A stretch of 20,765 nt of DNA, taken from contig JBFMCE010000070.1 in the NCBI GenBank assembly GCA_040754655.1, positions 1-20,765 of the forward strand, written 5' to 3'. Shown piece after piece: positions 1-18,047 of this stretch (its first letter is position 1; the number at the start of each line of letters is the position of its first letter). The notes beneath the pieces are model-generated. The model saw nothing but the letters and a program-made list of their open reading frames with translations, had not been told where the DNA came from and ran no database searches. This stretch comes from Bdellovibrionota bacterium. GTDB taxonomy: Bacteria > Bdellovibrionota > UBA1018 > UBA923. The translations under genes and the position numbers were made by a program.

Positions 1-491
1 TTCGTCGCGGCGTATTCTTTGTTCTTGTTCCCCCATACGCCGATCATGAAGTAGATCGGCAATAGGGCAGAGCCCCAGAAAGCAAAGAGCAGAAACAGGT
101 CTTGAGCGGCGAAGGTTCCGAGAACGCTCGTCTCTAACATCAAGAATAAAGCGAAATAACCCCTCACCCCGGTGGTTCGATCCCATGAAGCGATGATGCA
201 CAACAGGAACAAGAGCGAGGTGAGGCAGATCAGGGCAATGCTAAGGCCGTCCACTCCGATTAAATAAGAAATATTCAACGAAGAGACCCACTCATAGTTT
301 TCAACAAACTGCATTCCGCTGGCCTCGGGGCTGAACTTCGCGACCAGCACGCAACTCAAGACAAACGTCATGAGACAGGTGGCCAAGGCTATGTAGCGCT
401 GCATCGTTTTATCGTTAGGGTGGAAGAGCAGGGTGAGAAACGATCCTATTAGAGGAAGAAAAATGATTGTGCTTAAAATGTAATTGATCAA
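1..491 (-). CDS. nuoM: NADH-quinone oxidoreductase subunit M-like (antiporter-like), 5' part only; runs off the window edge
   Basis: Not in the ORF track; translated manually. TTG start at 491, 4 nt after the nuoL stop, with a GGGGGA SD-like run upstream. Reads MINYILSTIIFLPLIG...MQFVENYEWVSSLNISYLIGVDGLS...QDLFLLFAFWGSALLPIYFMIGVWGNKNKEYAAT, matching the NuoM N-terminus (GVDGLS, DLFLF..W...P.YF.I..WG). Open to position 1. Confidence 0.93.
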   Translation of the reverse strand, partial: MINYILSTIIFLPLIGSFLTLLFHPNDKTMQRYIALATCLMTFVLSCVLVAKFSPEASGMQFVENYEWVSSLNISYLIGVDGLSIALICLTSLLFLLCIIASWDRTTGVRGYFALFLMLETSVLGTFAAQDLFLLFAFWGSALLPIYFMIGVWGNKNKEYAAT

Positions 492-495
492 GGCC

Positions 496-2457
496 TTATC
501 CCCCCAAGACAACGAACTTTGCGACGATGGCGCCCATCAAGATAAGCCCCATCGCGAAATAAAATTGAACCTGCCCGTTCTGTACGAGCCTCAACGACTT
601 TCCAATCGTAGCAATGGCTTCGGCCAGGCCATCGACGAGTTTTTGATCGATCAAACGAGTCTCTAAAGCAATGAAAGCATTTTTCAAAAAACGCATGGGC
701 TTCAACCATGCGTCAGAGGTGAGGTAATCCAAACCCCTTGAATCAATGAAGGCCGCAAGCCTTCCAAGGTTCTTGCCCGTCGGGCTGATGAACCAGTTCC
801 AAAGCAACGATTGATTGCCTTGCAGCCTGGCCAAATGATCGGTAAACGCGCTGACTTTGGCCTTGAATCGTTCGGTGGATTCGCGATCCCTAAAGATAAG
901 AAACATCGATAAGAGCCAAGAGAAAAGCAGGATGCTCACCAAAGAAACCCTCGCCAGAATATCGGAATCCGTTCCTACGAGCTCAAGGGCTGTCTGAGAA
1001 GAGCGTGACGATCCGACCGGGATGCTTACAAGTCTTTCAAACCAAGCGAAGTTCGGCAAAAGCTCAACGCCATCGTTTCCAAGAAGCCCGCTAAACAGTC
1101 TTCCACCGGTAAGCACCGCCAAACATGAAAGACAGACCAGAGCCACGGGAATGGCGATTTCAATGCGTAAATTTTCTTTCGTCGTCTTAGCGGCCCATCT
1201 CTCTCGCAGCACTCCCCACAAAGCCACGCTCAAGATGAAATCCGTCACGAACTTGATCCCGACCAGGACCCACTGAAGATGATAACCTTGTTCGCCCACG
1301 TGAAGAAGGCCAAGGTACTCTAGATAGCGCGCACCTGCCCAACCCGTTCCAGGAAAGCCGCTGAACGCCACAACAGCTAGCGCGACGAACCATCGCGATC
1401 CCCGGTCTTCCGCTTGAAATTGGTTCAAGGTCAATGTCACCAAAAAACTCACGATGACGCCGTTGAAAGCCAGCGCTTGCGCCGCCTGGTAATCCGCCGT
1501 AAGCCCGGAAATGAACACAGAGGCCGAAATATAACTGACGAGCCAGCCCGCGATCATGGAAGGTTCGCGCTCGGGAAGCGCCATCACCGCCGAAGTCAAC
1601 GCCGTGATCGCCGAAATGATGCCCAGGTATTCAAGACCATTGATCGATGAGAGGGCGGGATAGAGCTTCGAAAAAATCGTCGCAGACAAAAGCGCATGCC
1701 CGATGAAGAAAATCGGGAGCGCGCTTGATTTTGCCGAAGCGAGATAACGAACGTTCTGCATCAGCGGGAAATGCAAGCTGCGCAGCATGCACGCCAGTCC
1801 TAGGCAAACAATTGGCCAAGCCTCTGGCTGGCCGGCTGAATGTTCATTGATCTCTTTGAAACTCAACGATCCATACAACACGTAACATCCCAATGTGCCC
1901 GCCAGAAAAACGATCTCCGGTATCGCATTGAGAATCGCGTATCGAAACGAAGCTCTGGCTCGTTCATCGCGAGAAGGGCTGCTAAATCCAATGGCGACGA
2001 ATCCGATAAAACCAACCAAAGCCCATCCGAAGTAGAATGAGATGAGGTTGCCAGAACTCAACGTCAACAAGGTGCCGAGAGAGACCAATGGTATCGCTGT
2101 GACCTCGCCGCTAGATTGGCTCTTTGAGCCTTTGAGTTCTTGCATCAAGGCGAAGTATTCAAGAAGGGCGAGGATCACCGAGAACAAGAGCCAAAACAAC
2201 ATGGTCGTCGCGTCGACGTCGAATTTAAGCTCAAAACGAACATTTTCCGCGAGCGCAAACCAAGTCCCGCTCCATTGCACGACCGACGATTCCGCGAAAA
2301 TCCTCACCGCAGCCCAAATCGCGCTTCCGAGCTGCACGCATGCCATCGCCAGGCCCAGCCCTCGAACTCCCAACTTGGATCTGCTCCTGAAAAACACCGA
2401 GATCAGGGCCCAAAGAAGCAATGCTCCGGCGGAAAGGAAAAGCGGTGCTCGTTCCAT
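496..2457 (-). CDS. nuoL: NADH-quinone oxidoreductase subunit L-like, highly divergent (653 aa)
   Basis: Lies between nuoK and nuoM; many TM segments; NL..FY.GW..VG...F..IGF remnant of TM5; C-terminal amphipathic helix plus LRLVQNGQVQFY and a terminal TM typical of NuoL. Confidence 0.85.
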   Translation of the reverse strand: MERAPLFLSAGALLLWALISVFFRSRSKLGVRGLGLAMACVQLGSAIWAAVRIFAESSVVQWSGTWFALAENVRFELKFDVDATTMLFWLLFSVILALLEYFALMQELKGSKSQSSGEVTAIPLVSLGTLLTLSSGNLISFYFGWALVGFIGFVAIGFSSPSRDERARASFRYAILNAIPEIVFLAGTLGCYVLYGSLSFKEINEHSAGQPEAWPIVCLGLACMLRSLHFPLMQNVRYLASAKSSALPIFFIGHALLSATIFSKLYPALSSINGLEYLGIISAITALTSAVMALPEREPSMIAGWLVSYISASVFISGLTADYQAAQALAFNGVIVSFLVTLTLNQFQAEDRGSRWFVALAVVAFSGFPGTGWAGARYLEYLGLLHVGEQGYHLQWVLVGIKFVTDFILSVALWGVLRERWAAKTTKENLRIEIAIPVALVCLSCLAVLTGGRLFSGLLGNDGVELLPNFAWFERLVSIPVGSSRSSQTALELVGTDSDILARVSLVSILLFSWLLSMFLIFRDRESTERFKAKVSAFTDHLARLQGNQSLLWNWFISPTGKNLGRLAAFIDSRGLDYLTSDAWLKPMRFLKNAFIALETRLIDQKLVDGLAEAIATIGKSLRLVQNGQVQFYFAMGLILMGAIVAKFVVLGG

Positions 2458-2461
2458 ATGT

Positions 2462-2764
2462 CTAGTGCCTCAACTCGTTTTTCTCGCCTATGTTTGTCGT
2501 TCCTGAGGCCATGAAGCGGCGGTAGGTGAGGGTGCAGCCCAAGATGATCGTATTCAAAATCATCGTCGCGACGCAGAGGGCGAAGAACATGCCGTCGCTC
2601 GAATTAGGTTCATTTTGATGAAACGCCGCCATCGCCACCAGCGCTCCCATGCCTGCCGTCGTTAATCCCATGATCACGGCAAGGATACTCCCCCGCGAAA
2701 GGGCCGACGCGATCCCAATGCCCACCAAAACCGCGGATAAAACCAAATAGAGTTCAATTTGCAT
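2462..2764 (-). CDS. nuoK: NADH-quinone oxidoreductase subunit K-like, divergent (100 aa)
   Basis: 100 aa, three hydrophobic helices, YLVLSAVLVGIG start, DG before TM3, GTTNI...NELR tail; operon position. Confidence 0.88.
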   Translation of the reverse strand: MQIELYLVLSAVLVGIGIASALSRGSILAVIMGLTTAGMGALVAMAAFHQNEPNSSDGMFFALCVATMILNTIILGCTLTYRRFMASGTTNIGEKNELRH

Positions 2765-3296
2765 CGTCAGGTTTCCTCAATAGCAACCCGGTTCCAACCA
2801 CCGTTAAAAGCACCAGCACCCCGAAAAGCTCGAAAACCGCCAAATGATCCGTGAGCATTTTATCGCCCAACACATGCACATCCGCCTTCAAAGCGGAAGC
2901 GGCGCTTTGAGATGCCCCGACCACTGGTCTGAGCTTGGAGACTGACAAGAACGCCCAGGCGATAGAAACGCCAACGGCTATCCCAAGTACCACTCCAAGC
3001 CCCCTGGTCAGATGCCTGGTTGATGCTTTGGTCGAGGGTTGTCTGAACACTTCCCTGAGATTCGAAGATACGACGCTCGCGAAGTACAGCAGCAATACCG
3101 TGCCCATGAGGGCGACCCCGAAGATCGCTAAGGCCAGGTAATCCGCTTTCAAGCTCAGCAAAACCCCGGAGACGCTGAAAAGCTCGACAAAGAAAGCGAT
3201 ACTTGACCTCAAAAGATCTCGAGCAAAAGCGATATAGGTCGCTGATAAAACACAAAGCACCATGAACAAGAAGGTCATCACCTCGAGTAGAGTCAT
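2754..3296 (-). CDS. nuoJ: NADH-quinone oxidoreductase subunit J-like, divergent (180 aa)
   Basis: Five TM-like segments; L.ADYLA and C-terminal LG..ML.DHL.VFELFGVLVLLTVVG motif; ATGA overlap with the nuoI stop. Confidence 0.88.
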   Translation of the reverse strand: MTLLEVMTFLFMVLCVLSATYIAFARDLLRSSIAFFVELFSVSGVLLSLKADYLALAIFGVALMGTVLLLYFASVVSSNLREVFRQPSTKASTRHLTRGLGVVLGIAVGVSIAWAFLSVSKLRPVVGASQSAASALKADVHVLGDKMLTDHLAVFELFGVLVLLTVVGTGLLLRKPDDAN

Positions 3297-3877
3297 GTTT
3301 CACCTTCGTTCTTTTCCCGGCGCCGCAGCTCGGCCCCGACAGGGCTTTGCTCTAACCACGCTTGCTCTTCGGCCTTCGCTTCTTTAGCCATCTGTTCAGT
3401 AAGCCAATTTTGTTTCATGTCCCGCGTCGCCCAACCGCGACCGAAACTCTTCACAAGGCTACTCAGTTCAAAAACAGATCCTTGATACTCCCGGGTATGT
3501 TGCAAGCTCTTCGTCGGACATACTTCAACGCAAAGCCCGCAAAACATGCAACGCGCATGATCGATGTCGAAAACAGCTACCCAACTCATATTGCGTTCAG
3601 GACCCGGCTCTGTTTCGATGCGAATGCAATCGATCGGGCACACTTCCAAGCAGTACCGGCAGCCCGAGCAGCGCTCGATGTCGTTGTAGAGAAAGCCCCG
3701 ATACCTGGCGGGCAAGTCTTCCGGCATGCGCGCGCTGACCCGGTCGGGGTACTCCTCGGTGACGACCTTGAAACTCTCGGAAGCGCCTATCATATAAGGC
3801 AAGGTGGTGCGCAAAGCCATGATCAAGGTTTCACAACCCTTCCTTATTTTTGTCCAATATCCGTGTAGGCCGCTCAC
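3293..3877 (-). CDS. nuoI: NADH-quinone oxidoreductase subunit I (2x[4Fe-4S] ferredoxin-like, about 194 aa)
   Basis: T.EYP, RYRG, CSGCRYCLEVCP and CMFCGLCVEVCP motifs. Start re-assigned to GTG at 3877 (GTGA overlap with the nuoH stop, AGGAG SD upstream) rather than the ORF-track start at 4159, which lies inside nuoH. Confidence 0.95.
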   Translation of the reverse strand: MSGLHGYWTKIRKGCETLIMALRTTLPYMIGASESFKVVTEEYPDRVSARMPEDLPARYRGFLYNDIERCSGCRYCLEVCPIDCIRIETEPGPERNMSWVAVFDIDHARCMFCGLCVEVCPTKSLQHTREYQGSVFELSSLVKSFGRGWATRDMKQNWLTEQMAKEAKAEEQAWLEQSPVGAELRRREKNEGET

Positions 3878-4968
3878 AAGAAATCTCCTAAACCTCTTCC
3901 ATTGAAAATCACCATCCAAACCGCGACGAAAAATATCGAAAATAGCCCGACCGGAACCAAGCAGCGCCAACTCAGCTTGATCATCTGGTCGATTCGCATC
4001 CGCGGCAAGGACCACCGGATCCAAATTGACAAGAAAACCAGGAAAAAGACCTTTGTGATGAAAAACAACCACTCGACGAGATTGGCCGCGCGACCAAACG
4101 ATTCGAGATTCAGCGGCGTACGCCATCCCCCCAAGTAAGTGGTCACGATCAACGCGCACGACAAAAACATTGAAAGCGTCTTCAATATCGATACGAATCC
4201 ATGCCGAAGCCCGCTGAATTCCGAGGAAACGCCACCCGCCACCTCAACCAAAGAGTCATGATGGTCAAACGGAGTCCGTCCTTGCCATATCGACAATCCA
4301 AAGAACAGGCAGAGAAACGAAAGGAGCGTGCCCGGATTGTGCAAGACGATCCAGTTCCATGGCATTCCTCCTTGGACACGCACGATTTGATCAAAGTTTG
4401 GGCTGCCGGCAACCAAGACCGGCGGGACAAGCGCTACGGCCACCGGAATGATGTACGTCACAAGGGTGCCGATGATCCGAAATGACGAAAGCACAGACCA
4501 CTGGCTTTCTGCCGAATATGCCGCCCAGAAAATGCAGAGGTTGGAGACTCCCAAAGCCGTCAGCACCGCCACCAATCCTGATTCAAGATTCGATATCGCC
4601 CAACTCTGCGACATCGGAATGCTACCGACCGCGGCGAACATCACGACGATAGCGGCCGGGATGCCCCAACGAAAAAGAAAACGTTCCTGCAGCACGGGTT
4701 CGAGGTTTTCTTTGAACAAGAGTTTGATCGCATCGGCGATGACTTGAAAGAATCCGTAAAGCGGAACGCGATTGGGCCCGATGCGCATTTGAATGTCGGC
4801 GCCGAACTTGCGGTCCATGAATCCGATGGCGACGATCGGGGGCAGTGTGAGCAAAAACCCATGAACAAAAACCGCCAGAGAGACCAGCACCCAACCCGGT
4901 ATCGTTGCGCTGAAGAACGAGCCCAAGTAAGCGGCAAGCGGGCTGATCGCGTTCAAATCGGCGTTCAT
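3874..4968 (-). CDS. nuoH: NADH-quinone oxidoreductase subunit H-like (364 aa)
   Basis: DRK..A.IQ.RIGPNRV..YG.FQ.IADAIKLLFKE; R.PFD; EFSG; W.RWSLPRMRIDQ motifs. Confidence 0.95.
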   Translation of the reverse strand: MNADLNAISPLAAYLGSFFSATIPGWVLVSLAVFVHGFLLTLPPIVAIGFMDRKFGADIQMRIGPNRVPLYGFFQVIADAIKLLFKENLEPVLQERFLFRWGIPAAIVVMFAAVGSIPMSQSWAISNLESGLVAVLTALGVSNLCIFWAAYSAESQWSVLSSFRIIGTLVTYIIPVAVALVPPVLVAGSPNFDQIVRVQGGMPWNWIVLHNPGTLLSFLCLFFGLSIWQGRTPFDHHDSLVEVAGGVSSEFSGLRHGFVSILKTLSMFLSCALIVTTYLGGWRTPLNLESFGRAANLVEWLFFITKVFFLVFLSIWIRWSLPRMRIDQMIKLSWRCLVPVGLFSIFFVAVWMVIFNGRGLGDFL

Positions 4969-6077
4969 CGGTCTACCTCCGAAGCCATGATGTCAAATGA
5001 TCCCAGTATCGTCGTGACGTCGCTGATCGGGACATCCTTCAATATCGCCGGAAAGAGATTCAACACCGAAAACGAAGGCGTCCTGAACTTGACTCGGAAC
5101 GGGTGTTTCTCGCCTTGGCTCGAGATGTAGACGCTGAGGGTTCCGCGCGGGCTTTCAACCGAGGCGTACGCTTCCCCTTGGGGCGCTTTGAATATCCTGG
5201 GAAGCGTCGTTTGATAGTCGCCCGCGGGAAGATCATCGAGAGCTTGTTTGATGAGGGAAGCTGATTGCTCGATCTCCCGAATCCTGACCATGTGGCGGTC
5301 GAATGCATCGCCCGTTTTTCCCGCTTCGCCTTTGCCAACCGGGACGTCGAATTCGAGTTTGTGGTAAACGCAGTACGGAAAGACTTTCCTGACATCGTAC
5401 TTCAACCCGCTCCCGCGAACGATGGGACCCGTGACTCCACAGCTCACGGCCTCTGAAGCGGAAACAACGCCAACCTCGGCCAATCTTCCGACGAAGATCT
5501 GGTTATTCGAAAGAAGATCGTTGTACTCTTTAAGCTTGGGAACCAGGTAATCAATGAACTCATACGCCTTCTCGATGAATCCCTCTGTGACATCGGCGAA
5601 TACCCCTCCTATGCGGACATAGTTGTAGGTGAGGCGAGCCCCGCATAAGATCTCAAAGAGGTTGTTTACCTTTTCACGATCGCGAAGCGCATACAATAGA
5701 GCTGACTCAGCGCCCAGGTGATGGGCCAGGGTCCCAATGCTCATCAGATGACTCGCGATTCGATTCAATTCACCCGCGATCACCCTGATGTATTGCGCGC
5801 GCTCAGGGGCCTTTATCTCTGAAAGGCTCTCGACGGCCAATGCATAGACAAGGTTGCAGTGGATTGAAGCGAGGTAATCAATCCGATCGGTATAAGGCAT
5901 GAATCCGGTCCAGGTCATGCGTTCGGCGATCTTTTCAATGCCTCGATGCAAATAACCCACGTCAGGACGAGCCGTCAGCACGACCTCTCCGTCAGTTTCA
6001 ACGCTCACGCGAAACGGCCCAATGGCCGCTGAGTGGTGAGGACCGATATTAAGCCTTAGCGTTCGCGCTTCTGCCAT
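4965..6077 (-). CDS. nuoD: NADH-quinone oxidoreductase subunit D-like (370 aa)
   Basis: LNIGP.H, GYLHRGIEK, DRIDY, ELNRIASHL, GARL.YNY.RIGGV, ESPRG, C-terminal EVDR; no NiFe CxxC motifs; GAGGG SD. Confidence 0.96.
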   Translation of the reverse strand: MAEARTLRLNIGPHHSAAIGPFRVSVETDGEVVLTARPDVGYLHRGIEKIAERMTWTGFMPYTDRIDYLASIHCNLVYALAVESLSEIKAPERAQYIRVIAGELNRIASHLMSIGTLAHHLGAESALLYALRDREKVNNLFEILCGARLTYNYVRIGGVFADVTEGFIEKAYEFIDYLVPKLKEYNDLLSNNQIFVGRLAEVGVVSASEAVSCGVTGPIVRGSGLKYDVRKVFPYCVYHKLEFDVPVGKGEAGKTGDAFDRHMVRIREIEQSASLIKQALDDLPAGDYQTTLPRIFKAPQGEAYASVESPRGTLSVYISSQGEKHPFRVKFRTPSFSVLNLFPAILKDVPISDVTTILGSFDIMASEVDR

Positions 6078-6085
6078 TTAAACCC

Positions 6086-6595
6086 TCATGGTCGCGTATG
6101 CTCCTTACGCAACGGAGCCCGTCGATGTTCGATCGAATGGTATTCTTCGGGGAACGTGTAATCCTTCCGCAATGGGAATCCTTGCCAATCTTCCGGCAAA
6201 AGGAGTTTTCGAGGCTCAGGATGCCCCTGAAACGAGATGCCCAGCATTTCGGCGATCTCAAGTTCATAGTAAATCGCCGCTTTCCATGTCTCATGCGCCG
6301 ACGGCATCTTCGGAGAATGGCGGTCGACCGATACTTTGAGATTCAAGGTATGCACGAGCGACAAGGAGACGAGCCTGTAGATGATCTGAAGCTCTTGCCC
6401 AGCATCGATGCCAATCATGTTCTCAAGAAAATCAAATCTCAAGCTTGAATCAGCAGCGCAAAACTCAAGAACCTTTTTCAAGGAATCACGTTCAACGCCG
6501 ATTGAAATGAATTTTCCGCCATTCTGATCCTCGATAGGATGAATCGCCTTCCCGAAGTTCTTCTCGAGCGCCTCGAAAAATTCACGCGTCTCCAT
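6086..6595 (-). CDS. nuoC: NADH-quinone oxidoreductase subunit C (about 169 aa)
   Basis: E.E..EM.GI.F.GHP..R..LLP.DW.G.PLRKDY signature. Start taken at ATG 6595 (GGGGTG SD); 6613 is an alternative. Confidence 0.93.
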
Positions 6596-7097
6596 CGACA
6601 CCCCTGAGTTCATCGCGCACCAAGACGCGGCTGCCTGCGATTCGACGCTGCAAGGTCAACAAACCATGCAGAAGAGCTTCTGGGCGCGGGGGGCAGCCTG
6701 GCACGAAAACATCAACAGGAATGATTTTATCGACCCCGCTCACGGTCGAGTAGGAATACTCCCAACTGAACAACCCTCCGCAATTCGCGCAGCTTCCCAT
6801 CGAAATCACGTACCTGGGGTGAGGCATCTGCTCATAAAGCTCGCGAATGCGCGAGGCCATCTTATGAGAGACCGTTCCCGCGACGATCATCAAGTCCGCG
6901 TGCCGAGGAGAAACTTGCGACACAGCCCCGAATCTCTCGATATCGAACCGCCCGCCCGCTACTTGCATCATTTCAACGCCACAGCATGCAAGATCGAGAG
7001 TGAGATAGTGGATAGAGTTCTGCCTGGCCCAGTTTATCGCGCGATCGAGCTGGGTGAAAACGACGTACTCGGGAAAAGCATTTTCAAGAATTCCCAT
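6582..7097 (-). CDS. nuoB: NADH-quinone oxidoreductase subunit B (cluster N2)
   Basis: [45 protein letters not shown]; all four N2 ligands present. Confidence 0.97.
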
Positions 7098-7488
7098 GAT
7101 TGTTTCGACTTTCCTTGTCTCGAATCCAGCTCAAATCACCTTTGGTCCAAGCATACGCTAAAGCGACTGAAAGTGACGCTAGAAATAAGCTGACAGCCAC
7201 CAATGCCGCCAGACCGCGACCCTCCTCGAGAGCGTGCCGAAAGGTGCTCACCACCGGATAAAGCATGAACATCGCCCCGAAAAACGCCGCCGCCGCCACC
7301 ACGAGGGACTGATAGCGCGACGCCATTTTGATCCAAGGTTTCGACTCGATCGCTTCTCCTGAGCTGAACGCGGTCTTTCCGCTCTCATCTCGCCGACTGC
7401 GTCGAACCCAAAAGCTAAAGACCAGCAACGAGATGAGAAACCCAAGACCCCAGATGCCCGCTAGAAAATTTGGAAGGTGTTTTTCCAT
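7084..7488 (-). CDS. nuoA: NADH-quinone oxidoreductase subunit A-like, divergent (about 134 aa)
   Basis: Three TMs, K..F.SG loop, LYP, and YAW.KG.L.W C-terminal motif; first gene of the operon. ATG 7488 preferred over the TTG at 7509. Confidence 0.88.
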
Positions 7489-7537
7489 AATATAAATATT
7501 GAAATTCAAATAATAAAACTATATTGCGCCCCTATAA
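7489..7537. promoter_or_regulatory. Compact AT-rich divergent promoter region between nuoA and mfd, with palindrome TTGAA-A-TTCAA (7499-7509)
   Basis: 49-bp spacer, strongly AT-rich against a roughly 50% GC background. Plus strand TTGAAA(7499)-N15-TATATT(7520); several TAnnnT hexamers on the minus strand. Confidence 0.6.
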
Positions 7538-10500
7538 ATGTCTAGCCATCTTGGTCAAGAAATCTTCAATCGTTGGACACGTTCCTTTTCTCAAGTCGAA
7601 TTCGTAGGACTCAATTCAGCCGCGAAAGCGCTCGCACTTGCCGAACTCATCGTGAAATTCAACCAACGCGTCGCGGTAGTTTGCGCGAATGCCGAAGCTG
7701 CCTCGCGAATGCATCAAGACATCAAGGCGTTCGTCGCTCTTCTCGGAGGCGAAGAGCTCACCAATCAAATTGATTACTTTCCTGGTTGGGAACATTCACC
7801 ATACAAGGCATTCAACCCGTCTCTGAAAAATCGCATCCGGCGCCTTCGCACACTTCATCGCGCGCTCAATGCGGCCAATAGGGCGATCGTCACCGATATC
7901 GAGGCTTTCGCGCAGCGGTGCCCTACGATTGAGCAAATTCAAAACCGTGGTTTTACGCTGCGCGTGCAAGACGTTGTTAGCCGAGACGAGTTGGTCGCTA
8001 AACTTGAACAAGCCGGTTACGTTCGAAACGATCCTGTGGAAGACCCCGGCAGTTATACCGTGAGAGGGAGCATCTTTGATATTTTCTCGTCAGCATCGAA
8101 GAGACCTGTGCGAATCGACTTTTTCGATGACATGGTTGAAACTATCAGGAGCTACGATCCCAACTCGCAACGTAGCGACCAGGCGTCGCTGGGTGAAGCA
8201 ACGATCATCCCGACATCAGAACTCGCTCTGACGAACGAAGAGATCGCCGTTGGTAAGACCAATATCAAGAACCTTTGCGATGAATTCGGAATTCCGAAAC
8301 AAGCCCGCGATGAATTGTTTGAAAAACTCGATCTCGGAATTCGTGAGCCCTCTCTTGAGTACTTGCTCCCTCTGTTTAGTGACGCTGAACGCCCCTTCTT
8401 GCTCGAACACTTGCGCGGCGATTGGAAGCTTGCGATTGATGACTCATTCGGCGCTGAAAGCTCTTACGATGAACTCACCACTCGGCTAAAGGCTGACTTC
8501 AAACGAGCCGTCGCAGAGGGCAAGGTCGTCGCGCCCTGGGAAAGACTTTACGTGACGCCCGAGAGTTTCAATCTCGGGGAAAAAGCGTCCTTGCTGCTAG
8601 AAAGCATTTCCGTCGGAGTTCCCGAAGCTACGGTTCCCCAAGAAGATCAAGAATCGACTTCGCTTTCTCGTCGTTTAGAAGTCAAACTCTACTCAAACGC
8701 CGACATCTCGCCTCAAGAAAACCGGAAAGCTTCTTTTGAGCCTTTGGTTGAAAAAGCAAAGCTTTGGCAAGACAAAGGCTTTGCACGTGTGTGCATCGCA
8801 TCAACCAAAAGCCAGGCCGAACGCGTTAGTTTCTTGCTCAACCAAAAAGACATCCCTTGTCGAGTCGTATCGCAGATTGATTGGACAGAGCGTCTTGTCT
8901 TTCAGATTTGCGAAGGCTCGGTAAGTTCGGGATTTCGAATTCCAAGCCAAGAGCTTGTCGTCGTCACCGACGCCGAGATCTTCGGGCCAAAAAAACTCAG
9001 ATCGCATTCCACTCAAGGAGCGACCCAACCTGAAGTCAGCATGGGAAGCTTTGTTTCCTCCCTTGAAGACCTCAATGCAGACGAACTGATCGTACACAGC
9101 AAACACGGGATCGGACGTTATCGGGGTTTGATGAAGCTCGAAATCGACCGAGTTCCCCAAGACTTCTTGCTCATCGAATACGCTGGCGCCGACAAGCTTT
9201 ACCTGCCTGTTTACCGGCTCGATCAAGCCCAGCGCTACGTCGGCGCACAAGAAGGCGTCAGTCTTGATAAGCTTGGCACGAATCAGTTTGAAAAAACAAA
9301 GCAGAAGGTCAAGGCGGCGCTTCAAGATCTTGCCCATCAACTCTTGCAGCTCTACGCCAAAAGAGCGAGCAGAGAAGGTTTTTCGTTTTCCGCTAGAGAC
9401 GAAGACTACAGCGAATTCGAAGCAAGATTCCCGTATGCCGAAACTCCTGACCAACTAAAAGCCATCGAAGATGTCTCACGCGATATGGAGACCGACCGCA
9501 TCATGGATCGCCTCATCTGTGGCGACGTCGGTTACGGAAAGACCGAGGTAGCGATGCGTGCGGCTTTCCGGGCTGTCGTCGATGGGAAACAAGTCGTCGT
9601 TCTCGTTCCCACGACCGTCTTGGCGTTACAACATGAAAGATCATTTCGAGAGCGCTTCAAGACAGCGCCTCTTCCGGTGAACATCGGCGTATTGTCACGC
9701 TTCAAGACTCCCAAAGAAGTGAAAGAAACCCTCACTGGCCTCAAACAAGGAAGCGTGGACATCGTCATCGGCACTCACCGGTTGCTCTCAAAGGACGTGG
9801 CCTTTAAAGACCTTGGTTTGATCGTCATTGACGAGGAACAGCGTTTCGGCGTCGAACACAAAGAGAAACTCAAAGCCCTTCGCGTCAATACCGACGTACT
9901 TACGCTCACCGCGACTCCGATTCCGCGCACCCTTCAGCTCTCGCTCATGGGCATTCGAGACATCAGCGTGATCAATACTCCGCCCGTCGATCGATTGAGC
10001 GTGCGCACTTACATCGCGCGATTCAACGACGACGTGATCCGTTCGGCGATACAACAAGAGATCGCGCGCGGGGGGCAGGTCTTCTTCATCCACAACCGGG
10101 TTCAAAGCATCAATGCGATGGCCGATCGAATTCAGGCGATCGTGCCCGAAGCCAAGATCATCATCGCGCATGGGCAACTTGACGAGAAAACGCTTGAAGA
10201 ACGCATGCTTGAGTTCTACAACAAGAAGGGCAATGTGCTCATCTGCTCTACGATCATCGAATCGGGCTTAGACATCCCATCGGCCAATACGATGATCATC
10301 AATCGCGCCGACATGTTTGGCCTTTCCCAGCTCTACCAGCTTCGAGGTCGGGTAGGGCGCTCTCAGGTGCGAGCCTATTGCTACCTCCTTCTTCCGGAAG
10401 AGGGGGCCATCACCGAGGAGGCCAAGAAGAGGCTTGAAGTGATTCAACGCTTTGTGGATTTGGGGTCTGGCTTCAAGATCGCCTCACATGACCTTGAGCT

Positions 10501-11068
10501 CCGGGGCGGCGGCGATATCCTGGGGAAATCGCAGTCAGGGCACATCGCGGCCGTTGGATTCGAACTCTATGCCGAGCTACTCGATGAAACCATCAGGGAG
10601 CTTCGTGGCCAAGCGATCGAAGACCACTTCGATCCCGAGATTAAGCTGCCGGTGCCTGCGTTGCTGCCTGAGTCGTACGTTCCTGACGTCCACCAACGGC
10701 TTGGTTTTTATAAGAAACTTTCGCAAGCTTCTTCGGCCGAGATTCTGCATGCGCTCGAACTCGAACTCCAAGACCGTTACGGAAGAACTCCGACGGAGGT
10801 GCAAAACCTCATCTGGCTCATCCGAATCAAACAAATCCTGCGATTGCATCACATCAAAGCCCTCATCGCTGGCCCGGAAAGAACCTCGATCGACGCAGGA
10901 CAGGAGGCAAAACTTTCTCCCGTCAAAATGTTGACTCTAACCCAGCGAGAACCTCAGACCTACCTGCTCACGCCGGATTCGAAGGTCATCCTCAAACGCC
11001 CGTTCCAATCTGCCCAGCAGCTCTTTCACGATCTTGAGAAATTATTGACACAGGTTGCAGAGCACTAA
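7538..11068 (+). CDS. mfd: Transcription-repair coupling factor Mfd (1176 aa)
   Basis: UvrB-homology module (GY.R...VE.PG.Y.VRG.I.DIF), RID (VH.KHGIGRY.GL), [42 protein letters not shown] motif DLELRGGG. Confidence 0.99.
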
Positions 11069-11124: not shown

Positions 11125-11958
11125 ATGGGCAAAGCGCTTATATTGACAGGCATGTTGTGTGCAGTGATTACGAGTCCGATGGTTCACGCAGCCACTGAGC
11201 TTGCGCGAGTGAATTCGAAAGTAATCACTCTCGAAGAGTTCAATAACAAATACAAAGAGAACCTAAAGTTCTTTCGTTACAAGACTCCGACGAAAGAAAA
11301 CGTTCTTGATGAGATGATCAAGCGCGATCTGGGCGTTCAAGAGGCTAAGAAGCTTGGTTTGGATAAAGACCCGGAAGTGATCGAGCGCATCAACACCGTC
11401 CTTTACCACTCGCTCCTCGACAAGAAACTTTCCTCGAAGTTTGAAACGATCCAAGTCAGCAACAATGAGATTGAAGACCATTACAAAAAAAATCCCGAGA
11501 TCCGAACCTCACACATCTTTGTTCAAGTCAGGTTCGATGCCAACAAGGCTCAAGACAAGAAAGCCCTTGAGAAGATCAAAAAGGTTCAAGGCATTTTAAA
11601 CGACGCATTGAAATCAGGCAAACAAACCTTCGCGGAAGTCGCTCGTACATACTCTGAGGGTGTCGCCGCACCGGCGGGCGGCGATATCGACTACCAAACC
11701 AAAGACAAACTTGACCCCGCTTATTACCAGACGGCTGTGAATCTTAAGAAGGTCGGAGCGGTGAGCGATATCGTTCGTTCTCAGTTTGGCTATCATATCA
11801 TCAAGCTCACTGGCCTCAAAGAGTTCAAAGACGTCGACCGCGGACACTATAAGCGCATGGTTTTCGATGAAAAACGCGCAAAAATCTTCGACTCTTATAT
11901 GGATGACCTTAAAAAGAAGGCCAGCATCACGGTACGCCGTGAATTGATCAAAGATTAA
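11125..11958 (+). CDS. Exported parvulin (PpiC/PrsA-type) peptidyl-prolyl isomerase / foldase (277 aa)
   Basis: Sec signal ending VHA; LARVN...ITL.EF chaperone N-terminus; rotamase motifs SHIFV, FAEVARTYSE, GGDI, VRSQFGYHIIKL. Confidence 0.92.
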   Translation: MGKALILTGMLCAVITSPMVHAATELARVNSKVITLEEFNNKYKENLKFFRYKTPTKENVLDEMIKRDLGVQEAKKLGLDKDPEVIERINTVLYHSLLDKKLSSKFETIQVSNNEIEDHYKKNPEIRTSHIFVQVRFDANKAQDKKALEKIKKVQGILNDALKSGKQTFAEVARTYSEGVAAPAGGDIDYQTKDKLDPAYYQTAVNLKKVGAVSDIVRSQFGYHIIKLTGLKEFKDVDRGHYKRMVFDEKRAKIFDSYMDDLKKKASITVRRELIKD

Positions 11959-12022
11959 AGGTCAGCCTGTGTTTTAGTCTGCTCTTGCCTTAACCCTGGA
12001 TTCCGCGGTAGTTTGGGCTCGT

Positions 12023-12994
12023 ATGGACCCTAAGAACGCACGCTCGTTTTTCATCTCTCTTCTTGGTTTGTGCGCTATCTCAGCTTTCGCGCTCGAGATG
12101 CCTGCGCACGCCGCATTAATTGATAAAACTGCGGCAATCGTCAACAACGAGGCCATCTTGCTCTCAGATGCAAGACGTTTTGAGCGTACATTGGGCTTGA
12201 GACGAGAGCTTGACCCGCTATTCGGTTTTTCAGAAGAACTTGAGGCTGGCAAACTTTCGAACTCCAAAGTCCTCGATTTCCTCGTGCAAGAACGCCTGAT
12301 TGCCCAAAACTTCAAGGTAACTGATTCAGAGGTCGAGCAAGAAATCCAAACCGTCCAGCGCAACAACAACCTCAATAGGGAGCAGTTGGTCGATTTCTTA
12401 AAGGCCAAGGGCTTTTCTTTCCCAGATTACTACGAGCTTATGAGGGTGGGGCTTTCGAAACGAAACCTCCTCGACAAAGAAATCCGTACTCGAGTCAATA
12501 TCAGCGAAGAAGACAAGCGCAATTATTTTTACAATAATGTGATGAAGAATTCGAAGACCCCGCTCGAATACAATCTTCAACTCATCATGATCAGCAACAA
12601 GAGTTATAAAACTCCCAAAGCCGCTCTAGAGGCCGCTCAAAACGCTTTGCGCTCAATCAAGCAAGGCGAATCTTTCGCGGAAGTGGCTAAAAGCAGCTCA
12701 GATCACCCCTCAGCCCGGCAGGGAGGAACGCTTGACTATATTTCATCTGAGCAATTGGGAGAACCCCTTCGCTCAGAGGCGCGTAAACTTGCCATTGGAG
12801 CCGTCAGTGATGTGATCAAGACGTCAGATGGTCACCTCATTGTGAAGCTTCTCGATGCTCGATCCACCGAATCTCAGAAGTATAAGGAAATGAAAGATCA
12901 AATCGAAGAACGCCTGGCGCGGGTCGAGTACAAGAAACAGCTCTTCATTTGGGCTGAACGGGCCAGAAACGATGCCTACGTTCGCCTCAATTAA
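12023..12994 (+). CDS. surA: SurA-like periplasmic chaperone with one parvulin domain (323 aa)
   Basis: Signal peptide; IDK.AAIVNNE.ILLSD SurA N-domain; FAEVAK..SD....GG.L parvulin remnant; immediately upstream of pdxA as in the common surA-pdxA linkage. Confidence 0.82.
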   Translation: MDPKNARSFFISLLGLCAISAFALEMPAHAALIDKTAAIVNNEAILLSDARRFERTLGLRRELDPLFGFSEELEAGKLSNSKVLDFLVQERLIAQNFKVTDSEVEQEIQTVQRNNNLNREQLVDFLKAKGFSFPDYYELMRVGLSKRNLLDKEIRTRVNISEEDKRNYFYNNVMKNSKTPLEYNLQLIMISNKSYKTPKAALEAAQNALRSIKQGESFAEVAKSSSDHPSARQGGTLDYISSEQLGEPLRSEARKLAIGAVSDVIKTSDGHLIVKLLDARSTESQKYKEMKDQIEERLARVEYKKQLFIWAERARNDAYVRLN

Positions 12995-14015
12995 GCCGGC
13001 AACCAAGCTCATCGGAATCACAACCGGCGATCACCGCGGTATCGGCGCTGAAGTCATCGCCAAAGGCCTGAAGAAGTTTTTTAGCAAAACACTCGAACCC
13101 TCGGATGTGGTCATCTTTGGCAAACCCGAGCTGTACAGGCCATTTCACAAGCTCCTTCCAAAAGAATGGCATAGCTGGACGGAAAAAGAATTCTTGGCCC
13201 CGGATTGGGCGGGCCCAGAGAGGGCCGCCCTGAATTTCGTCGTCCCTGATTCCACCCAAATCCCAAAAAACCTTCGAAGCGCTTATTTCTGCGGCCGATA
13301 TATCGAGCTTGCGACTCTTTCAGCTTTGTCCGGAAGGCTCAGCGCGATCACAACAGGTCCAATTGATAAGAGTGAACTCAAACGCGGCGGGTATCCTTTT
13401 GACGGGCATACCGAAATGCTGAGAAATCTTTGCAAGGCCCCCTCTGTGACTATGATGATGGCGGGTCCGCAAATGAAAGCCTCTCTCGCGACCGTGCATG
13501 TCGCATTGAAAGATGTCGCTCAAACCCTCACCATTGAAAACATCGCCACTTGCATTGAAAACACGGCCCTGGGTTTGGTGCGCGACTTTGGGATCAAGCG
13601 ACCTAAGATCGCGGTTCTCGGGCTCAATCCCCACGCTAGCGACCAAGGTCTCTTCGGGAATGAAGAGCGTGATAAAATCAAACCCGCGATCAAACGCGCT
13701 CGTTCACGTTTTCCTCGCATTGAAATCGACGGCCCTTTCCCGCCAGATGGCTTTTTTGCGCAGTGGCGGTCGAGGCACGCCTTGAATTTTGATGCAATTG
13801 TTTGCATGTATCACGACCAGGGCCTTATTCCGGCCAAATTACTCGACTTTGAAAATACGGTAAACGTAAGCTTAGGTTTACCTATCGTGAGAACTTCGGT
13901 AGATCACGGCGTAGGATATGACATTGCCGGCAAGAACAAGGCCGATCCTTCTAGCTTTTGTGCTGCGTTAGCACTTGCTGTAGAGATCACGCGGCGGCGC
14001 TGGTCACGCAAATAG
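12972..14015 (+). CDS. pdxA: 4-hydroxythreonine-4-phosphate dehydrogenase PdxA
   Basis: IT.GD..GIG.E, GPI.K, GHTE, T.H, GLNPHA, MYHDQGL, N...GLP.VRTSVDHG; the three metal-binding His are present. Confidence 0.96.
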   Translation: MPTFASIKPATKLIGITTGDHRGIGAEVIAKGLKKFFSKTLEPSDVVIFGKPELYRPFHKLLPKEWHSWTEKEFLAPDWAGPERAALNFVVPDSTQIPKNLRSAYFCGRYIELATLSALSGRLSAITTGPIDKSELKRGGYPFDGHTEMLRNLCKAPSVTMMMAGPQMKASLATVHVALKDVAQTLTIENIATCIENTALGLVRDFGIKRPKIAVLGLNPHASDQGLFGNEERDKIKPAIKRARSRFPRIEIDGPFPPDGFFAQWRSRHALNFDAIVCMYHDQGLIPAKLLDFENTVNVSLGLPIVRTSVDHGVGYDIAGKNKADPSSFCAALALAVEITRRRWSRK

Positions 14016-14023
14016 GAGCAAAA

Positions 14024-15445
14024 ATGAGTTACGCAGAAAAAATCTTCCGTGAATACGACATCCGCGGCGTTTATGGCAAAGATTACGACGCGGAGTTTGC
14101 GAGTCTCTTGGGCCATGGGCTGACCACTTATTTTCGCAAGCACTCAAGACCGGGCAAAGGACGCGATGTCTTTCGAATCGCCATAGGGCGCGACGCTAGG
14201 CCCTCGGGCGATGAGATCACGCCAAAGTTCATCGATGCGCTTGTCCGCGAAGGATTTGACGTTTATGACCTGGGCATTGTTCCCACCCCGCTCGTGTATT
14301 TCTCGACATTCAATCTTGACGTCGATGGCGCTGTTTCGATCACGGGCAGTCACAATCCATCTGAGTACAATGGCTTTAAGATTTGCCTTGGCACCTCGAC
14401 TCTTCATGGGGAGAACATCCAAGAATTGCGCGAGATTTGCTCAAAGATCGTCAAACACATCCCAACCACGAACACCAGCATGCCAGGCAAACCGGCAATG
14501 GGCAGGATCTCGAAACAAGACATCATTACTCCCTATATTGCCGACGTGAAGGGACGCATCAAGATCGCAAGACCCATCACGGTAGTCATAGACTCAGGAA
14601 ATGGAACCGCCTGCACGGTAGCTCCAAAGCTGCTTTCAGAGCTTGGTTGCAAGGTCATTCCTCTTTTCTGCGATCTTGATGGAACTTTTCCAAACCACCA
14701 TCCAGATCCGACGGTGGTCGAAAACTTAAGAGACCTTCAAAAGGAAGTTCTCGCGCATAAAGCCGATCTGGGGATCGCCTATGACGGAGACTCTGATCGC
14801 ATCGGCGCGGTCGATGAAAAAGGGACACCCATCTTTGGCGATGAGTTGATGGTGCTTTACTCGAGAGAGATTCTTTCACGCAAACCGGGCGCGACGATCA
14901 TCTCTGAGGTCAAGAGCAGCAATAGGCTTTACAACGACATCGCTAAACACGGGGGTAAGCCATTGATGTGGAAGACGGGCCATTCTCTCATCAAAGCAAA
15001 GATGAAAGAAGAACATGCGGAACTTGCCGGGGAAATGAGCGGCCATATCTTCTTTGCCGACCGCTATTATGGCTATGACGACGCAATCTACGCCTCAGCG
15101 CGTCTGCTAGAACTTTTGAGCAAGCAAAAGGGAACTTTATCTTCATTGCTCTCTGACCTTCCTCCTTCCGTCAGCACTCCTGAGATCCGCGTGGACTGCG
15201 AGGATGAGATCAAGTTTGAAGTCGTCAGTCGAGTTCGCAAAAACCTGGCGAGCCGTTTTAAAACCATTGATATTGACGGAGTGCGCATCGAAACTCCCCA
15301 AGGGTGGGGACTTTTGCGTGCGTCCAACACCCAGCCTGTGGTAGTAATGCGCTTTGAAGCGACCTCAAACTCTGATTTAGAGTCACTTAGAAAGACGATA
15401 GAAGATGCTTTCGAAGCAGCACGACGGGAAGTCAAATCGGCCTAA
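14024..15445 (+). CDS. Phosphomannomutase/phosphoglucomutase (AlgC-like, about 473 aa)
   Basis: [15 protein letters not shown] catalytic Ser, DGDSDR metal loop, GEMSGH, RASNTQP. Start re-assigned to ATG 14024 (AGGAG SD at 14014-14018). Confidence 0.96.
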
Positions 15446-18047
15446 CAAGAAGATCAAGGAAATCGCGACCTCAAATGATGAATTCATCGTCATCAAGGGT
15501 GCGAAAGAACACAATCTCAAGAATCTGAATATTTCGATTCCGCGGGAAACCCTCACGGTGATCACCGGGCTTAGCGGTTCGGGCAAATCTTCGCTAGCCT
15601 TTGATACTATCTTCGCTGAAGGCCAACGCCGTTACGTCGAATCGCTCTCAACTTATGCTCGTCAGTTTTTAGAAACTCTTGATAAACCTGATGTGGAAAG
15701 TGTTGACGGGCTGTCTCCAACGATCTCAATTCAACAAAAAACGACTTCTCACAACCCACGTTCGACCGTCGGCACAGTGACCGAAGTTTACGATTATCTA
15801 AGGCTGCTTTACGCAAGGCTTGCAAAGCCGTTTTGCCACCAGTGCGGAAAACCCATTTCAAGCCAAACGGCGCAACAAATCGTAGACCGGGTGCTGGAGC
15901 TGCCAGACAACTCTAAGATCTGCATCCTGGCTCCGATCGTTCGAGGGCGAAAAGGCGAGTACCAAAAAGAACTGATCGCCATGCGGCAAAAAGGGTTCTC
16001 CCGTGTGCGCATTGACGGAGAGGTCTTGGATTTGAGCCAAGACATCGCGCTCGACAAGCAGAAAAAACACAACATCGACGTGTACGTAGACCGACTCATT
16101 TTGAGGCGATCGACACCGGCGGCCAAGGGATTTGATCCCATCCGAGGCAGGCTTCAAGAGTCGATTGAGACCGCCCTCAAACTCGCTGAAGGCTTGGTCA
16201 AGGTTGAGCTACCTGATGAAAACACTGAAACCCTTTATTCCGAGAAATTCGCCTGCATCGATTGCGGCATCTCGTATCCCGCACCCGAGCCACGTACTTT
16301 CTCATTCAACTCGCCTATGGGAGCCTGCCCTGAGTGCAACGGGTTGGGTTATTTCGTGGAAGAACCGTCGAATGAGGACGAAGACGAAGAAGATCTTAAC
16401 GCATCAACCACGGCCGCCATAGATGTGTGGACGAAATGCGAGAAATGCAAGGGGACAAGGCTCAAGCAGGAATCTTTGTATTTCAAGATTCATGATCGAA
16501 ACATCGCCGATCTAAGCTCGATGTCGATCGAAAGGCTTGCTGAATTTTTTGGCAAGGCCAAGTTTGCCGAACGAGACCTGATGGTGGCTGACCGGATCTT
16601 AAAGGAAATCAAAGACAGGTTGGGATTTTTGTTGCATGTCGGGGTAGGGTACATTTCGCTCGACAGAGCGGCTCAAACCCTTTCAGGAGGCGAGAGTCAA
16701 CGTATTCGGTTGGCTACGCAAATCGGGTCGTCTTTGGTGGGTGTCATTTATGTCCTTGATGAACCCAGCATCGGACTCCATCAGCGCGACAACAACAGGT
16801 TGCTTGAAACCCTCGAGAGATTGCGCGATATGGGAAACACCGTCTTGGTCGTAGAACACGATGAAGACACGATTCGAAAGGCCAATCACGTGATTGACCT
16901 TGGTCCCAGGGCAGGCACTCAAGGAGGGGAATTGGTTGCGCAAGGCACCCTTGAAGAGGTGTGCGCGAATCCCAAATCGCTCACGGGCCAATACCTCACG
17001 TCGAAACTAAAGATCGAAGTGCCTAAAACGAGAAGGCCTTACAACGATCAACATGCAATCAAACTCAAAGATGTGGCCCAGAACAACCTAAAGTCAGTAG
17101 ATGCCACGTTCCCTCTAGGGGTTTTCACGTGCGTAACAGGGGTTTCAGGTTCAGGAAAATCGACCCTTGTGATCGACACGCTCTATGCGCTTCTAATGAA
17201 AGAGCTCCACAACACGAAAATTTCTGAGCTAAACTTCAAATCCATCGAAGGCCAAGAGCTCATCGACAAAGTCATCGATATCGATCAATCTCCGATCGGT
17301 CGCACGCCTCGCAGTAACCCAGCCACTTATACGGGCACATTCAGCATGATTCGTGATCTTTTCGCGATGCTGCCCGAGGCTCGAATGAGGGGGTTTAAGC
17401 CTGGCAGGTTTTCGTTCAACGTAAAGGGGGGAAGATGCGAGCGTTGTAAAGGCGACGGACTCGTACGCGTTGAGATGCATTTTTTATCCGACATTTACGT
17501 CACTTGTGATGAGTGTTCGGGCCGCAGGTACAATGAAGAGACCCTTTCGATTCACTACAAAGGAAAATCCATCTCTGACGTCCTTGCGATGACGATCGAT
17601 GACGCCACTCAGTTCTTTGAGAATGTTCCCAACCTTTCGCAAAAACTTCGGACCTTAAGCGAAGTAGGGCTTGGGTATATTACGCTTGGCCAAAGCGCCA
17701 CCACGCTTTCCGGAGGGGAAGCGCAGCGAATGAAGCTTGCGCGTGAGCTTTCGAGGCGTGCAACCGGGCGTACGCTCTACATCCTGGACGAACCCTCAAC
17801 AGGTTTGCATTTTGACGATGTCCGAAAGCTCATTCAGGTCTTGCACCGGCTGGTTGATCAAGGAAACTCTGTGATTGTGATCGAACACAACCTTGAGATC
17901 ATCAAAACCGCCGATTACATCATCGACTTAGGCCCGGAAGGCGGCGAGGGCGGGGGAGAAGTCCTGATTCAGGGCACTCCGGAACAAGTCGCAAAGCTTC
18001 CGCGATCGTATACCGGTCACTATCTAAAACCTTATCTTAGGAACTGA
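15405..18047 (+). CDS. uvrA: Excinuclease ABC subunit A, lacking the insertion domain (880 aa)
   Basis: GA.EHNLKN, two Walker A motifs ([18 protein letters not shown]), two LSGGE.QR signatures, LDEPS, Zn-finger CxxC pairs. Start uncertain: it overlaps the PMM gene by 41 nt. Confidence 0.98.

Follow-up and report, generated by a model that had tools for sequence, protein, structure and literature searches.

It is still a matter of dispute how quinone reduction in respiratory complex I is linked to proton translocation at a distance of some 200 Å, and older mutagenesis in Escherichia coli marks residues of NuoK, NuoA, NuoJ, NuoH and NuoL as functionally important. The F420H2 dehydrogenase of methanogens (Fpo) is a proton pump. 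NDH-2, a single-subunit flavoprotein unrelated to complex I, is a respiratory quinone reductase without pumping and offers a functional analogy only. A His-Asp pair in NuoD donates the quinone protons and is refilled via the E-channel and the central axis, a refilling that starts pumping, and NuoL is proposed as the only proton exit (PMC10212512). Single mutants of P. denitrificans at the NuoM-equivalent positions E144, K234, L244, H248, K265 and E407 have severely cut activity and strict coupling (PMC9802314); from these two papers we took the functional importance of the residues discussed below. Ordinary 11-subunit enzymes (NUO11, e.g. Desulfitobacterium hafniense and the cyanobacterial or plastid NDH-1) retain the features of the quinone site and of the pump (PMC11238625), while in Fpo the NuoD Tyr is present and His and Asp are absent (PMC4758237). 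Ehr, of the same superfamily and of unknown function, has lost its defining catalytic-site ligands (PMC4758237). Repurposing of antiporter-like subunits has precedents, namely the CO2-hydrating NDH-1 and the DAB complex (PMC6981117, PMC13144422), and two nuo clusters have been described in Bdellovibrionota (PMC13147790).

Here we describe a nuo operon in a stretch of 20,765 nucleotides (nt) from a Bdellovibrionota bacterium (GCA_040754655.1, contig JBFMCE010000070.1, positions 1 to 20,765), which as a whole is called the window in the following. As judged from alignments, the elements that in canonical complex I link quinone chemistry and proton translocation are replaced in its family: the His-Asp pair of NuoD, carboxylates in NuoH, NuoA, NuoJ and NuoK, and, in NuoL, NuoM and NuoN, the Glu site in transmembrane helix (TM) 5, the Lys sites in TM7 and TM12 and the sites in TM8. 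We put at about 0.5 the probability that the operon encodes an electron-transfer complex that is decoupled and no longer pumps, with its membrane arm retained as a scaffold of fixed charges. A full-text literature search, with subscription journals and supplements outside its scope, found no complex I homologue with these combined losses, in agreement with an earlier note on this DNA, which knew of no described system of this kind. A scan of 185,579 species genomes gave 63 pattern matches, from which two relatives were confirmed, L002 (JBBRLF010000010.1) and L003.

The closest described systems are the ordinary 11-subunit enzymes, which share gene set, gene order, the short NuoD and a donor encoded outside the operon; the nearest non-degenerate NuoD and NuoM relatives of the window clade are of this kind. 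These relatives, however, keep the His-Asp pair (98/99 NuoD) and the pump residues (99/99 NuoM), whereas the window clade lacks the pair and has also lost its titratable lysines and the carboxylates of the E-channel. With canonical 14-subunit complex I (E. coli Nuo, T. thermophilus Nqo) the locus has in common subunits A-D and H-N, the iron-sulfur (Fe-S) ligands of NuoB and NuoI and the NuoL architecture, but NuoEFG are missing from the operon and the pump and His-Asp residues are substituted. Fpo likewise has 11 Nuo-like subunits and a NuoD with Tyr and without His or Asp; the window operon differs in having neither FpoF nor FpoO. Membership in Fpo, considered on account of the absent His and Asp, was rejected on the family models, with scores against cut-offs of 341/600 for FpoD, 191/475 for FpoH, 74/220 for FpoC, 59/180 for FpoI and 21/145 for FpoK. 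Whereas Ehr is derived from group 4 hydrogenases, the window NuoD falls inside the Nuo11 radiation, and degeneration here affects mainly the coupling machinery. No match was established with the nuoAHJKLMN cluster reported for all Bdellovibrionota (PMC13147790); the window operon also has B, C, D and I.

The window carries the gene order nuoA-B-C-D-H-I-J-K-L followed by the start of nuoM, at 3-7488 on the minus strand. The genes are the following (scores in bits; aa, amino acids).

7084..7488, minus strand: nuoA, 134 aa; Pfam PF00507, 44.8; NuoA equivalog model, 30.6 against a cut-off of 163; ATG at 7488, with an open TTG upstream at 7509.
6582..7097, minus strand: nuoB; NF005012, 222.7, passing the cut-off of 116.
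6086..6613, minus strand: nuoC; PF00329, 116; 56% identity to the L002 copy.
4965..6077, minus strand: nuoD, of the short 370-aa type; PF00346, 285.7; NF008974, 441.6 against a cut-off of 522.
3874..4968, minus strand: nuoH; PF00146, 229.3; NuoH equivalog model, 205.8 against 305.
3293..3820, minus strand: nuoI; Fer4 families; TIGR01971, 79.3, under the cut-off.
2754..3296, minus strand: nuoJ; PF00499, 41; NuoJ equivalog model, 36.4 against 154.
2462..2764, minus strand: nuoK; PF00420, 31.2; NuoK equivalog model, 24.8 against 57.
496..2457, minus strand: nuoL, highly divergent, 653 aa; no Pfam match; identified by hhalign and an Atlas structure.
3..512, minus strand: nuoM, first 170 codons, the gene continuing past the window end; TIGR01972, 164.8 (fragment).

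Ten consecutive nuo-type open reading frames (ORFs) thus occupy 3-7509 on the minus strand with no internal stop or frameshift, and from nuoA to nuoM the junctions measure -14, -32, +8, -4, +53, -4, -11, +4 and -17 nt, which bears out the earlier description of ten frame-intact and tightly coupled genes. The overlap of nuoD and nuoH is 4 nt; nuoH follows nuoD directly, without nuoE, nuoF or nuoG in the window operon. Comparison with the L003 homologue points to the ATG at 7488 as the most likely start of nuoA. Pfam and NCBIfam models recognised NuoA, B, C, D, H, I, J, K and M, and all NCBIfam equivalog models stayed under their cut-offs; the NuoB subfamily model is the only one passed in the window, and the NuoM model is passed by the full-length L002 copy. 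The full family operon, read from the relatives, is nuoABCDHIJKLMN, 11 genes without the NADH module, with NuoN seen in L002 and L003 only.

The change that bears most directly on decoupling lies in NuoD and is absent from the earlier note. In the window NuoD, aligned by HMMER to 6hum_H, the quinone Tyr is kept, the His is replaced by Ile and its Asp partner by His; L002 and L003 have Gln in the Asp column. The His corresponds to H228 of the E. coli literature and H38 of T. thermophilus, and the Asp to D329 and D139, respectively (the RefSeq translation gives a number four lower for the His). For a wider comparison we used 122 sequences, namely the best 120 matches of the NuoD search, E. coli and the canonical L002 copy. 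The His is missing in 23 of these, and in them the partner column is never Asp or Glu (0/23), whereas Asp or Glu accompanies the His in 98 of the 99 sequences that bear it; the Tyr is kept in 121/122. A tree was built from 73 of these sequences (all 23 without His and every second other), and in it the His-less sequences form one clade, with a Shimodaira-Hasegawa-like approximate likelihood-ratio test (SH-aLRT) support of 98. The nearest solved chains belong to the cyanobacterial NDH-1, being NdhH for NuoD (6hum_H, E 7e-92) and NdhA for NuoH (E 1e-37).

The Fe-S wire leading to this site is kept. NuoB has the N2 cluster ligands C63, C64, C129 and C158, and NuoI has two CxxCxxCxxxCP motifs with all eight cysteines, the ligands of N6a and N6b, just as the earlier note had read them. 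NuoB is 86-87% identical to the L002 and L003 copies and NuoI 79% (codon alignment), and the C-terminal tail of NuoI is conserved in the family. The NuoB residue R87, a partner of NuoH, is replaced by Q in the window and kept in the canonical operon that lies next to the degenerate one in the relatives.

All substitutions listed in the earlier note for NuoM, NuoL, NuoK, NuoA, NuoJ and NuoH were reproduced with MAFFT, with HMMER against solved structures or with hhalign (numbering after E. coli K-12, locus L001). In TM2 of NuoA D79 is replaced by F and E81 by A, which leaves this helix without an acidic residue, whereas the canonical NuoA copies of L002 and L003 keep both. TM3 of NuoJ carries F for E55 and L for Y59. 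In NuoK both E36 and E72 are replaced by T, with no acidic residue in TM2 and TM3; HMMER agrees when aligned to 4he8_K, and against 8e9g_K the second Glu pairs with an Ile one residue off. NuoH has I for E157 (a loss confirmed by HMMER against 6nbq_A), Q for K140 and W for Y141, and keeps the charges D63, E71, R148, D213, E220 and E228. The E-channel positions (NuoH E157, NuoA D79/E81, NuoJ E55/Y59, NuoK E36/E72) are apolar or Thr in the window, L002 and L003. At NuoH residue 263 the window alone has Lys in place of E. coli E241, L002 and L003 having Glu, and this appears from the alignment to be one more loss that is confined to the lineage and adds to the family pattern, comparable to NuoM E144G.

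For NuoM, 123 sequences were compared, the family comprising 21 database proteins besides L003 and the window fragment. Arg replaces K234 in 22/22 family members and Gln replaces H248 in 19/22, and the further changes fixed in the family include L244F, T178Q, K312R, Y363G and H367G. Among the 128 near-invariant canonical NuoM columns 83 are kept in the family, and the 45 losses cluster in TM5, TM7 and TM8. The nearest canonical NuoM proteins all keep E144, K234, H248, K265, H322, H348 and E407 (99/99). The window has G at E144, a residue retained in 12/22 family members, and E407 is retained in 13/21; as aligned, the loss of E144 is lineage-specific rather than family-wide, and both positions vary as under relaxed constraint. 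The conserved TM4 Glu of NuoM ("LET") was considered as a carboxylate that might have moved there to compensate, and was rejected, since E, D or Q occupies this position in the nearest canonical NuoM too. In NuoN, which lies beyond the window and was read from L002 and L003, K217 and K395 are replaced by R, and K247 by T in L002 and by C in L003. The Lys of TM7 and TM12 is mostly replaced by Arg rather than plainly lost, and carboxylates are retained beside the replacement arginines (NuoL E181, NuoM D135, NuoN E133).

The tenth product, that of 496..2457, is so divergent that the NuoL subfamily model TIGR01974 gives it 46.6 bits against a cut-off of 407.5, and phmmer searches of the PDB chains, with the single sequence and with the family profile, gave no match at E up to 1. 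In an hhalign comparison, however, 21 family NuoL and 19 canonical NuoL align over 613 columns with a probability of 100 and an E of 2.8e-44, the alignment spanning the C-terminal lateral-helix/TM16 region, whose motif is kept in the window protein. The ESM Atlas model of the exact window sequence has a predicted TM-score (pTM) of 0.75 and TM-scores of 0.79/0.71 over 580 residues against NuoL clusters. Judged from profile alignment and model together, the 653-aa protein is a full-length NuoL. Compared with E. coli, A replaces E144, E replaces D178, R226 and R377 stand at K229 and K399, Y replaces D400, and H334, H338 and K342 are lost. Among 21 divergent NuoL there is no Glu at E144 (0/21), no His at H334 or H338 (0/21) and no residue at K342 (0/21); the K229 column has Arg in 12 and Lys in 2, the K399 column Arg in 13 and Lys in 2. 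Canonical NuoL retain E144, K229, H334, H338, K342 and K399 in 19/19. R226 and R377 are invariant in 8 close homologues, where new family-invariant residues are also present. In the Atlas feature search the neighbours of the NuoL-like protein (496-2457, minus strand) are unnamed 'hypothetical protein' clusters of 552-625 aa, with Bdellovibrionota, Dormiibacterota and Pseudomonadota as their commonest taxa, by which degenerate NuoL-like proteins may occur in other phyla. The annotation pipeline PGAP also names one member of the NuoL family a hypothetical protein.

From their distribution and trees, the nuo changes appear to define a distinct, old clade in metagenomic genomes. When the NuoL-like sequence was run in a word-indexed search against 5.8 billion proteins, 9 matches had an E of up to 0.001: the window protein itself, one fragment and 7 full-length proteins with 45-50% identity. 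Among 1.84 billion cluster representatives, an exhaustive profile search gave 240 matches at this same threshold and 20 with an E of up to 1e-30, the matches grading from the divergent family into canonical NuoL. The NuoL alignment was made from the top of the list (39 of 150 listed matches, fragments omitted) and comprises 21 divergent and 18 canonical representatives plus E. coli. In the NuoL tree the 21 degenerate sequences group as a single clade (SH-aLRT 100) whose stem measures 1.83 substitutions per site and for which long-branch attraction is possible, and identity among family members is 17-50%. The source labels of the members are Oligoflexia, Bacteriovoracia and "Deltaproteobacteria", with one locus labelled WWE3. 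The latter is L002, labelled candidate division WWE3, whose nuo genes group with Oligoflexia, Bacteriovoracia and Deltaproteobacteria proteins; its bin or taxon label may be wrong.

The earlier note had suggested looking for a second, canonical nuo operon and for orthologous operons near mfd, and both exist. The nuo order is a full A-N in L003, and in L002 C-N plus the 3' end of nuoB. In both relatives a second, canonical 14-gene nuo operon starts on the same strand 49 nt (L002) or 67 nt (L003) after nuoN, with nuoA-B-C-D-E-F-G-H as its visible genes (L002:9450-16336; L003:10238-11106 region). Its visible subunits keep NuoA D79/E81, NuoH E157, the NuoD His and Asp and NuoB R87, and such genomes therefore encode a canonical, pumping complex I as well. 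The degenerate and the canonical operon may be one 25-gene transcription unit. Degenerate and neighbouring canonical NuoD are 37% identical and the degenerate copy is of the short, NuoEFG-less type; the operon pair is not a recent tandem duplication. The canonical NuoG of L002 has 467 aa and little of the molybdopterin-like C-terminal domain. Upstream of the L003 nuoA lies a divergent mfd, 49% identical over 135 aa to the mfd of the window.

Selection was estimated by Nei-Gojobori ratios of nonsynonymous to synonymous divergence (dN/dS) between the window, L002 and L003, whose GC contents are 51, 56 and 64%. As the earlier note had proposed to check, dN/dS is well under 1 in every gene (0.03-0.28), although the proportion of synonymous differences (pS 0.53-0.85) is near saturation, several pairs being saturated, so that the ratios are rough. 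The peripheral subunits have 0.03-0.05 (NuoB), 0.03-0.04 (NuoI) and 0.08-0.11 (NuoD), the membrane subunits 0.14-0.15 (NuoH), 0.10-0.18 (NuoL), 0.10-0.28 (NuoK), 0.19-0.21 (NuoJ), 0.25 (NuoA), 0.05-0.13 (NuoM) and 0.09 (NuoN); by these values the peripheral arm appears as the most constrained part. In the closest pair, L002-L003, NuoL has 0.13 and NuoM 0.05, and the neighbouring canonical nuoA and nuoB have 0.05-0.07. The divergence is lopsided as well. Identity to E. coli is similar for the degenerate and the canonical L002 copies of NuoB (50 vs 48%) and NuoD (39 vs 35%), and lower for the degenerate copies of NuoA (22 vs 38%) and NuoH (30 vs 47%).

In the reading we favour, a decoupled electron-transfer complex, electrons would still enter from a soluble donor similar to ferredoxin, as has been proposed for other enzymes with 11 subunits, and would travel along the Fe-S wire to reach a quinone-like acceptor where the tyrosine sits. 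Electron transfer would proceed without proton translocation, the loss of the His-Asp pair and of the E-channel freeing it from an otherwise obligatory coupling, and the membrane arm, held by permanent pairs of Arg and carboxylate, would persist as a structural anchor. We propose only tentatively, and as something doubtful in all its parts together, a naturally decoupled complex I in which the Fe-S wire reduces a quinone-type acceptor, the pump is frozen by Lys-to-Arg and Glu-to-apolar exchanges and by loss of the His-Asp trigger, and the arm is selected for another job, e.g. gating by the membrane potential via the arginines, so that pumping and non-pumping forms would stand side by side, perhaps in one transcription unit.

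A number of observations weigh against decoupled electron transfer. If coupling is as strict as in the canonical enzyme (PMC9802314), the substitutions could mean a catalytically dead complex, and purifying selection on roughly 1,650 residues across NuoL, NuoM and NuoN would seem to exceed the needs of a simple anchor. Some titratable groups persist: K265 of NuoM is kept in 21/22 family members and H322 and H348 are retained too, E133 of NuoN is retained in L002 and L003, D178 of NuoL is replaced by a residue that is still acidic (E181), and NuoJ has a new, family-specific Glu, E38, in TM2. In the NuoD set one family-like sequence, P0199, is the sole exception to the joint loss, which keeps the His but carries Arg in place of the Asp. 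Its contig has the same length (15,760 nt) as the contigs encoding a degenerate NuoL (P0015) and a K234R NuoM (P0295), and P0199 may represent an intermediate in the loss of the pair. The family NuoL retain 9 of 62 canonical-invariant columns, so divergence runs along the whole length, and on the alignment is global and not confined to pump residues. The changes in NuoA, NuoH, NuoJ, NuoK and NuoN were observed in two or three family members, and the saturation noted above bears on every dN/dS value. Finally, in L003, a groundwater metagenome-assembled genome labelled 'Deltaproteobacteria', nuoL (5210-7149) has a frameshift near 5578-5605, and the space between nuoB and nuoD of ~228 nt (1359-1587) holds ~75 codons of nuoC, with ~116 N-terminal residues absent; these lesions are either real decay or a co-assembly error. 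The selective loss seen by the earlier note is real and clade-wide, but it is not the whole of the change, NuoL being rewritten throughout and NuoM E144 and E407 being variable. Its view of a changed role in place of decay is supported by the low dN/dS, the invariant arginines and the second operon, and is weakened by the L003 lesions.

Decay itself, with the genes as a functionless relic of incipient pseudogenes, we consider highly improbable. The L003 lesions, the 9/62 columns of NuoL and the drift of NuoM E144 and E407 would suit it, but the ten window ORFs are intact and tightly coupled, eleven frames of L002 are intact as well, dN/dS is low in every gene, NuoL included, frames are kept throughout a deep clade (NuoL 17-50% identity) with genomes of 51-64% GC, and the lesions may be assembly errors. 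Because losses shared by the clade, purifying selection, invariant arginines and a canonical operon come together, the data speak against simple decay and for a changed role. Such a role could lie with the neighbouring canonical complex I, whose NuoEFG the degenerate complex might borrow as a non-pumping NADH:quinone isoform, or for which it might be a redox-inactive scaffold or assembly platform. The canonical operon does follow at 49/67 nt on the same strand in both relatives, inspection by eye showed no terminator-like hairpin in these gaps (no terminator scan having been made on L002 and L003), and a donor module is missing from the degenerate operon itself. We nevertheless think a partnership of this kind unlikely: the NuoD is short, and the nearest non-degenerate relatives and NDH-1 (6hum_H) work without NuoEFG; at 37% identity to the neighbouring NuoD the docking surfaces need not match; and the strong constraint on NuoB and NuoI (dN/dS 0.03-0.05) argues against redox inactivity.

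Similarly improbable, in our estimate, is a repurposed arm whose fixed arginine charges would move or sense another solute, a gas, a lipid or the membrane potential, driven by redox or voltage. It would account for the invariant arginines (NuoM 22/22; NuoL R226 and R377 8/8) and the new family-invariant residues of NuoL, for purifying selection on NuoL, NuoM and NuoN, and for the very long NuoL stem branch, as expected after a functional shift; the CO2-hydrating NDH-1 and the DAB complex are precedents (PMC6981117, PMC13144422). On the other hand, the operon holds no extra subunit or domain for new chemistry, NuoM E144 and E407 vary as under relaxed constraint, and the E-channel that would carry the signal is apolar in NuoA and NuoK. 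We give little credit to pumping of protons or other cations that persists via different residues and water chains. For it one can cite the retained NuoM K265, H322, H348 and E407 (13/21), NuoN E133 and NuoL E181, the new NuoJ E38 and the partly kept charged funnel of NuoH (D63, E71, D213, E220, E228). Yet TM2 and TM3 of NuoK and TM2 of NuoA are without acidic residues, arginine is no proton shuttle at physiological pH, and the His-Asp trigger is gone. Moreover NuoL, the proposed sole exit (PMC10212512), is without E144, in part the TM8 His, H334, H338, K342 and both lysines.

The surroundings of the operon in the window are as follows.

7510..7538: weak sigma-70-like site with 9/12 matches, on the minus strand in the 49-nt gap between nuoA and mfd.
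7538..11068, plus strand: mfd; TIGR00580, 1039 bits; divergent from nuoA, a synteny marker outside the complex.

The count of sigma-70-like sites in the region is no higher than expected from shuffling. The other genes of the window are housekeeping genes, namely two for SurA-like isomerases, pdxA, phosphoglucomutase and uvrA, plus two ORFs without a family. The two genes for SurA-like peptidyl-prolyl isomerases stand in tandem, followed by pdxA (11125-14015, plus strand), an order that resembles a proteobacterial linkage of surA and pdxA and fits a Gram-negative host. The uvrA product (15405-18047, plus strand, 880 aa) matches the 943-position UvrA model in two stretches, with an internal segment apparently absent. 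At 18083-19507 and 19547-20728, both on the minus strand, lie adjacent ORFs of 474 and 393 aa with no Pfam or NCBIfam family; for the 474-aa ORF an Atlas feature search gave no match of at least 0.9, the best being 0.87. Rfam and tRNA scans of the window gave no matches.

Laboratory mutants with single-residue changes are slowed and never uncoupled (PMC9802314); here nearly all such positions are changed together with the quinone proton donors. Fold, Fe-S chain and purifying selection are kept and a canonical enzyme is encoded next to it in the relatives, which would make this clade a natural test of complex I coupling. If the complex is active, it would show which changes free electron transfer from pumping, and would be a case of non-pumping use of an antiporter-like arm; if it is inactive, it would be a rare large respiratory complex maintained for a non-catalytic role. 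For annotation, such operons would count as proton-pumping complex I in metabolic reconstructions of the Bdellovibrionota type, with their NuoL called a hypothetical protein.

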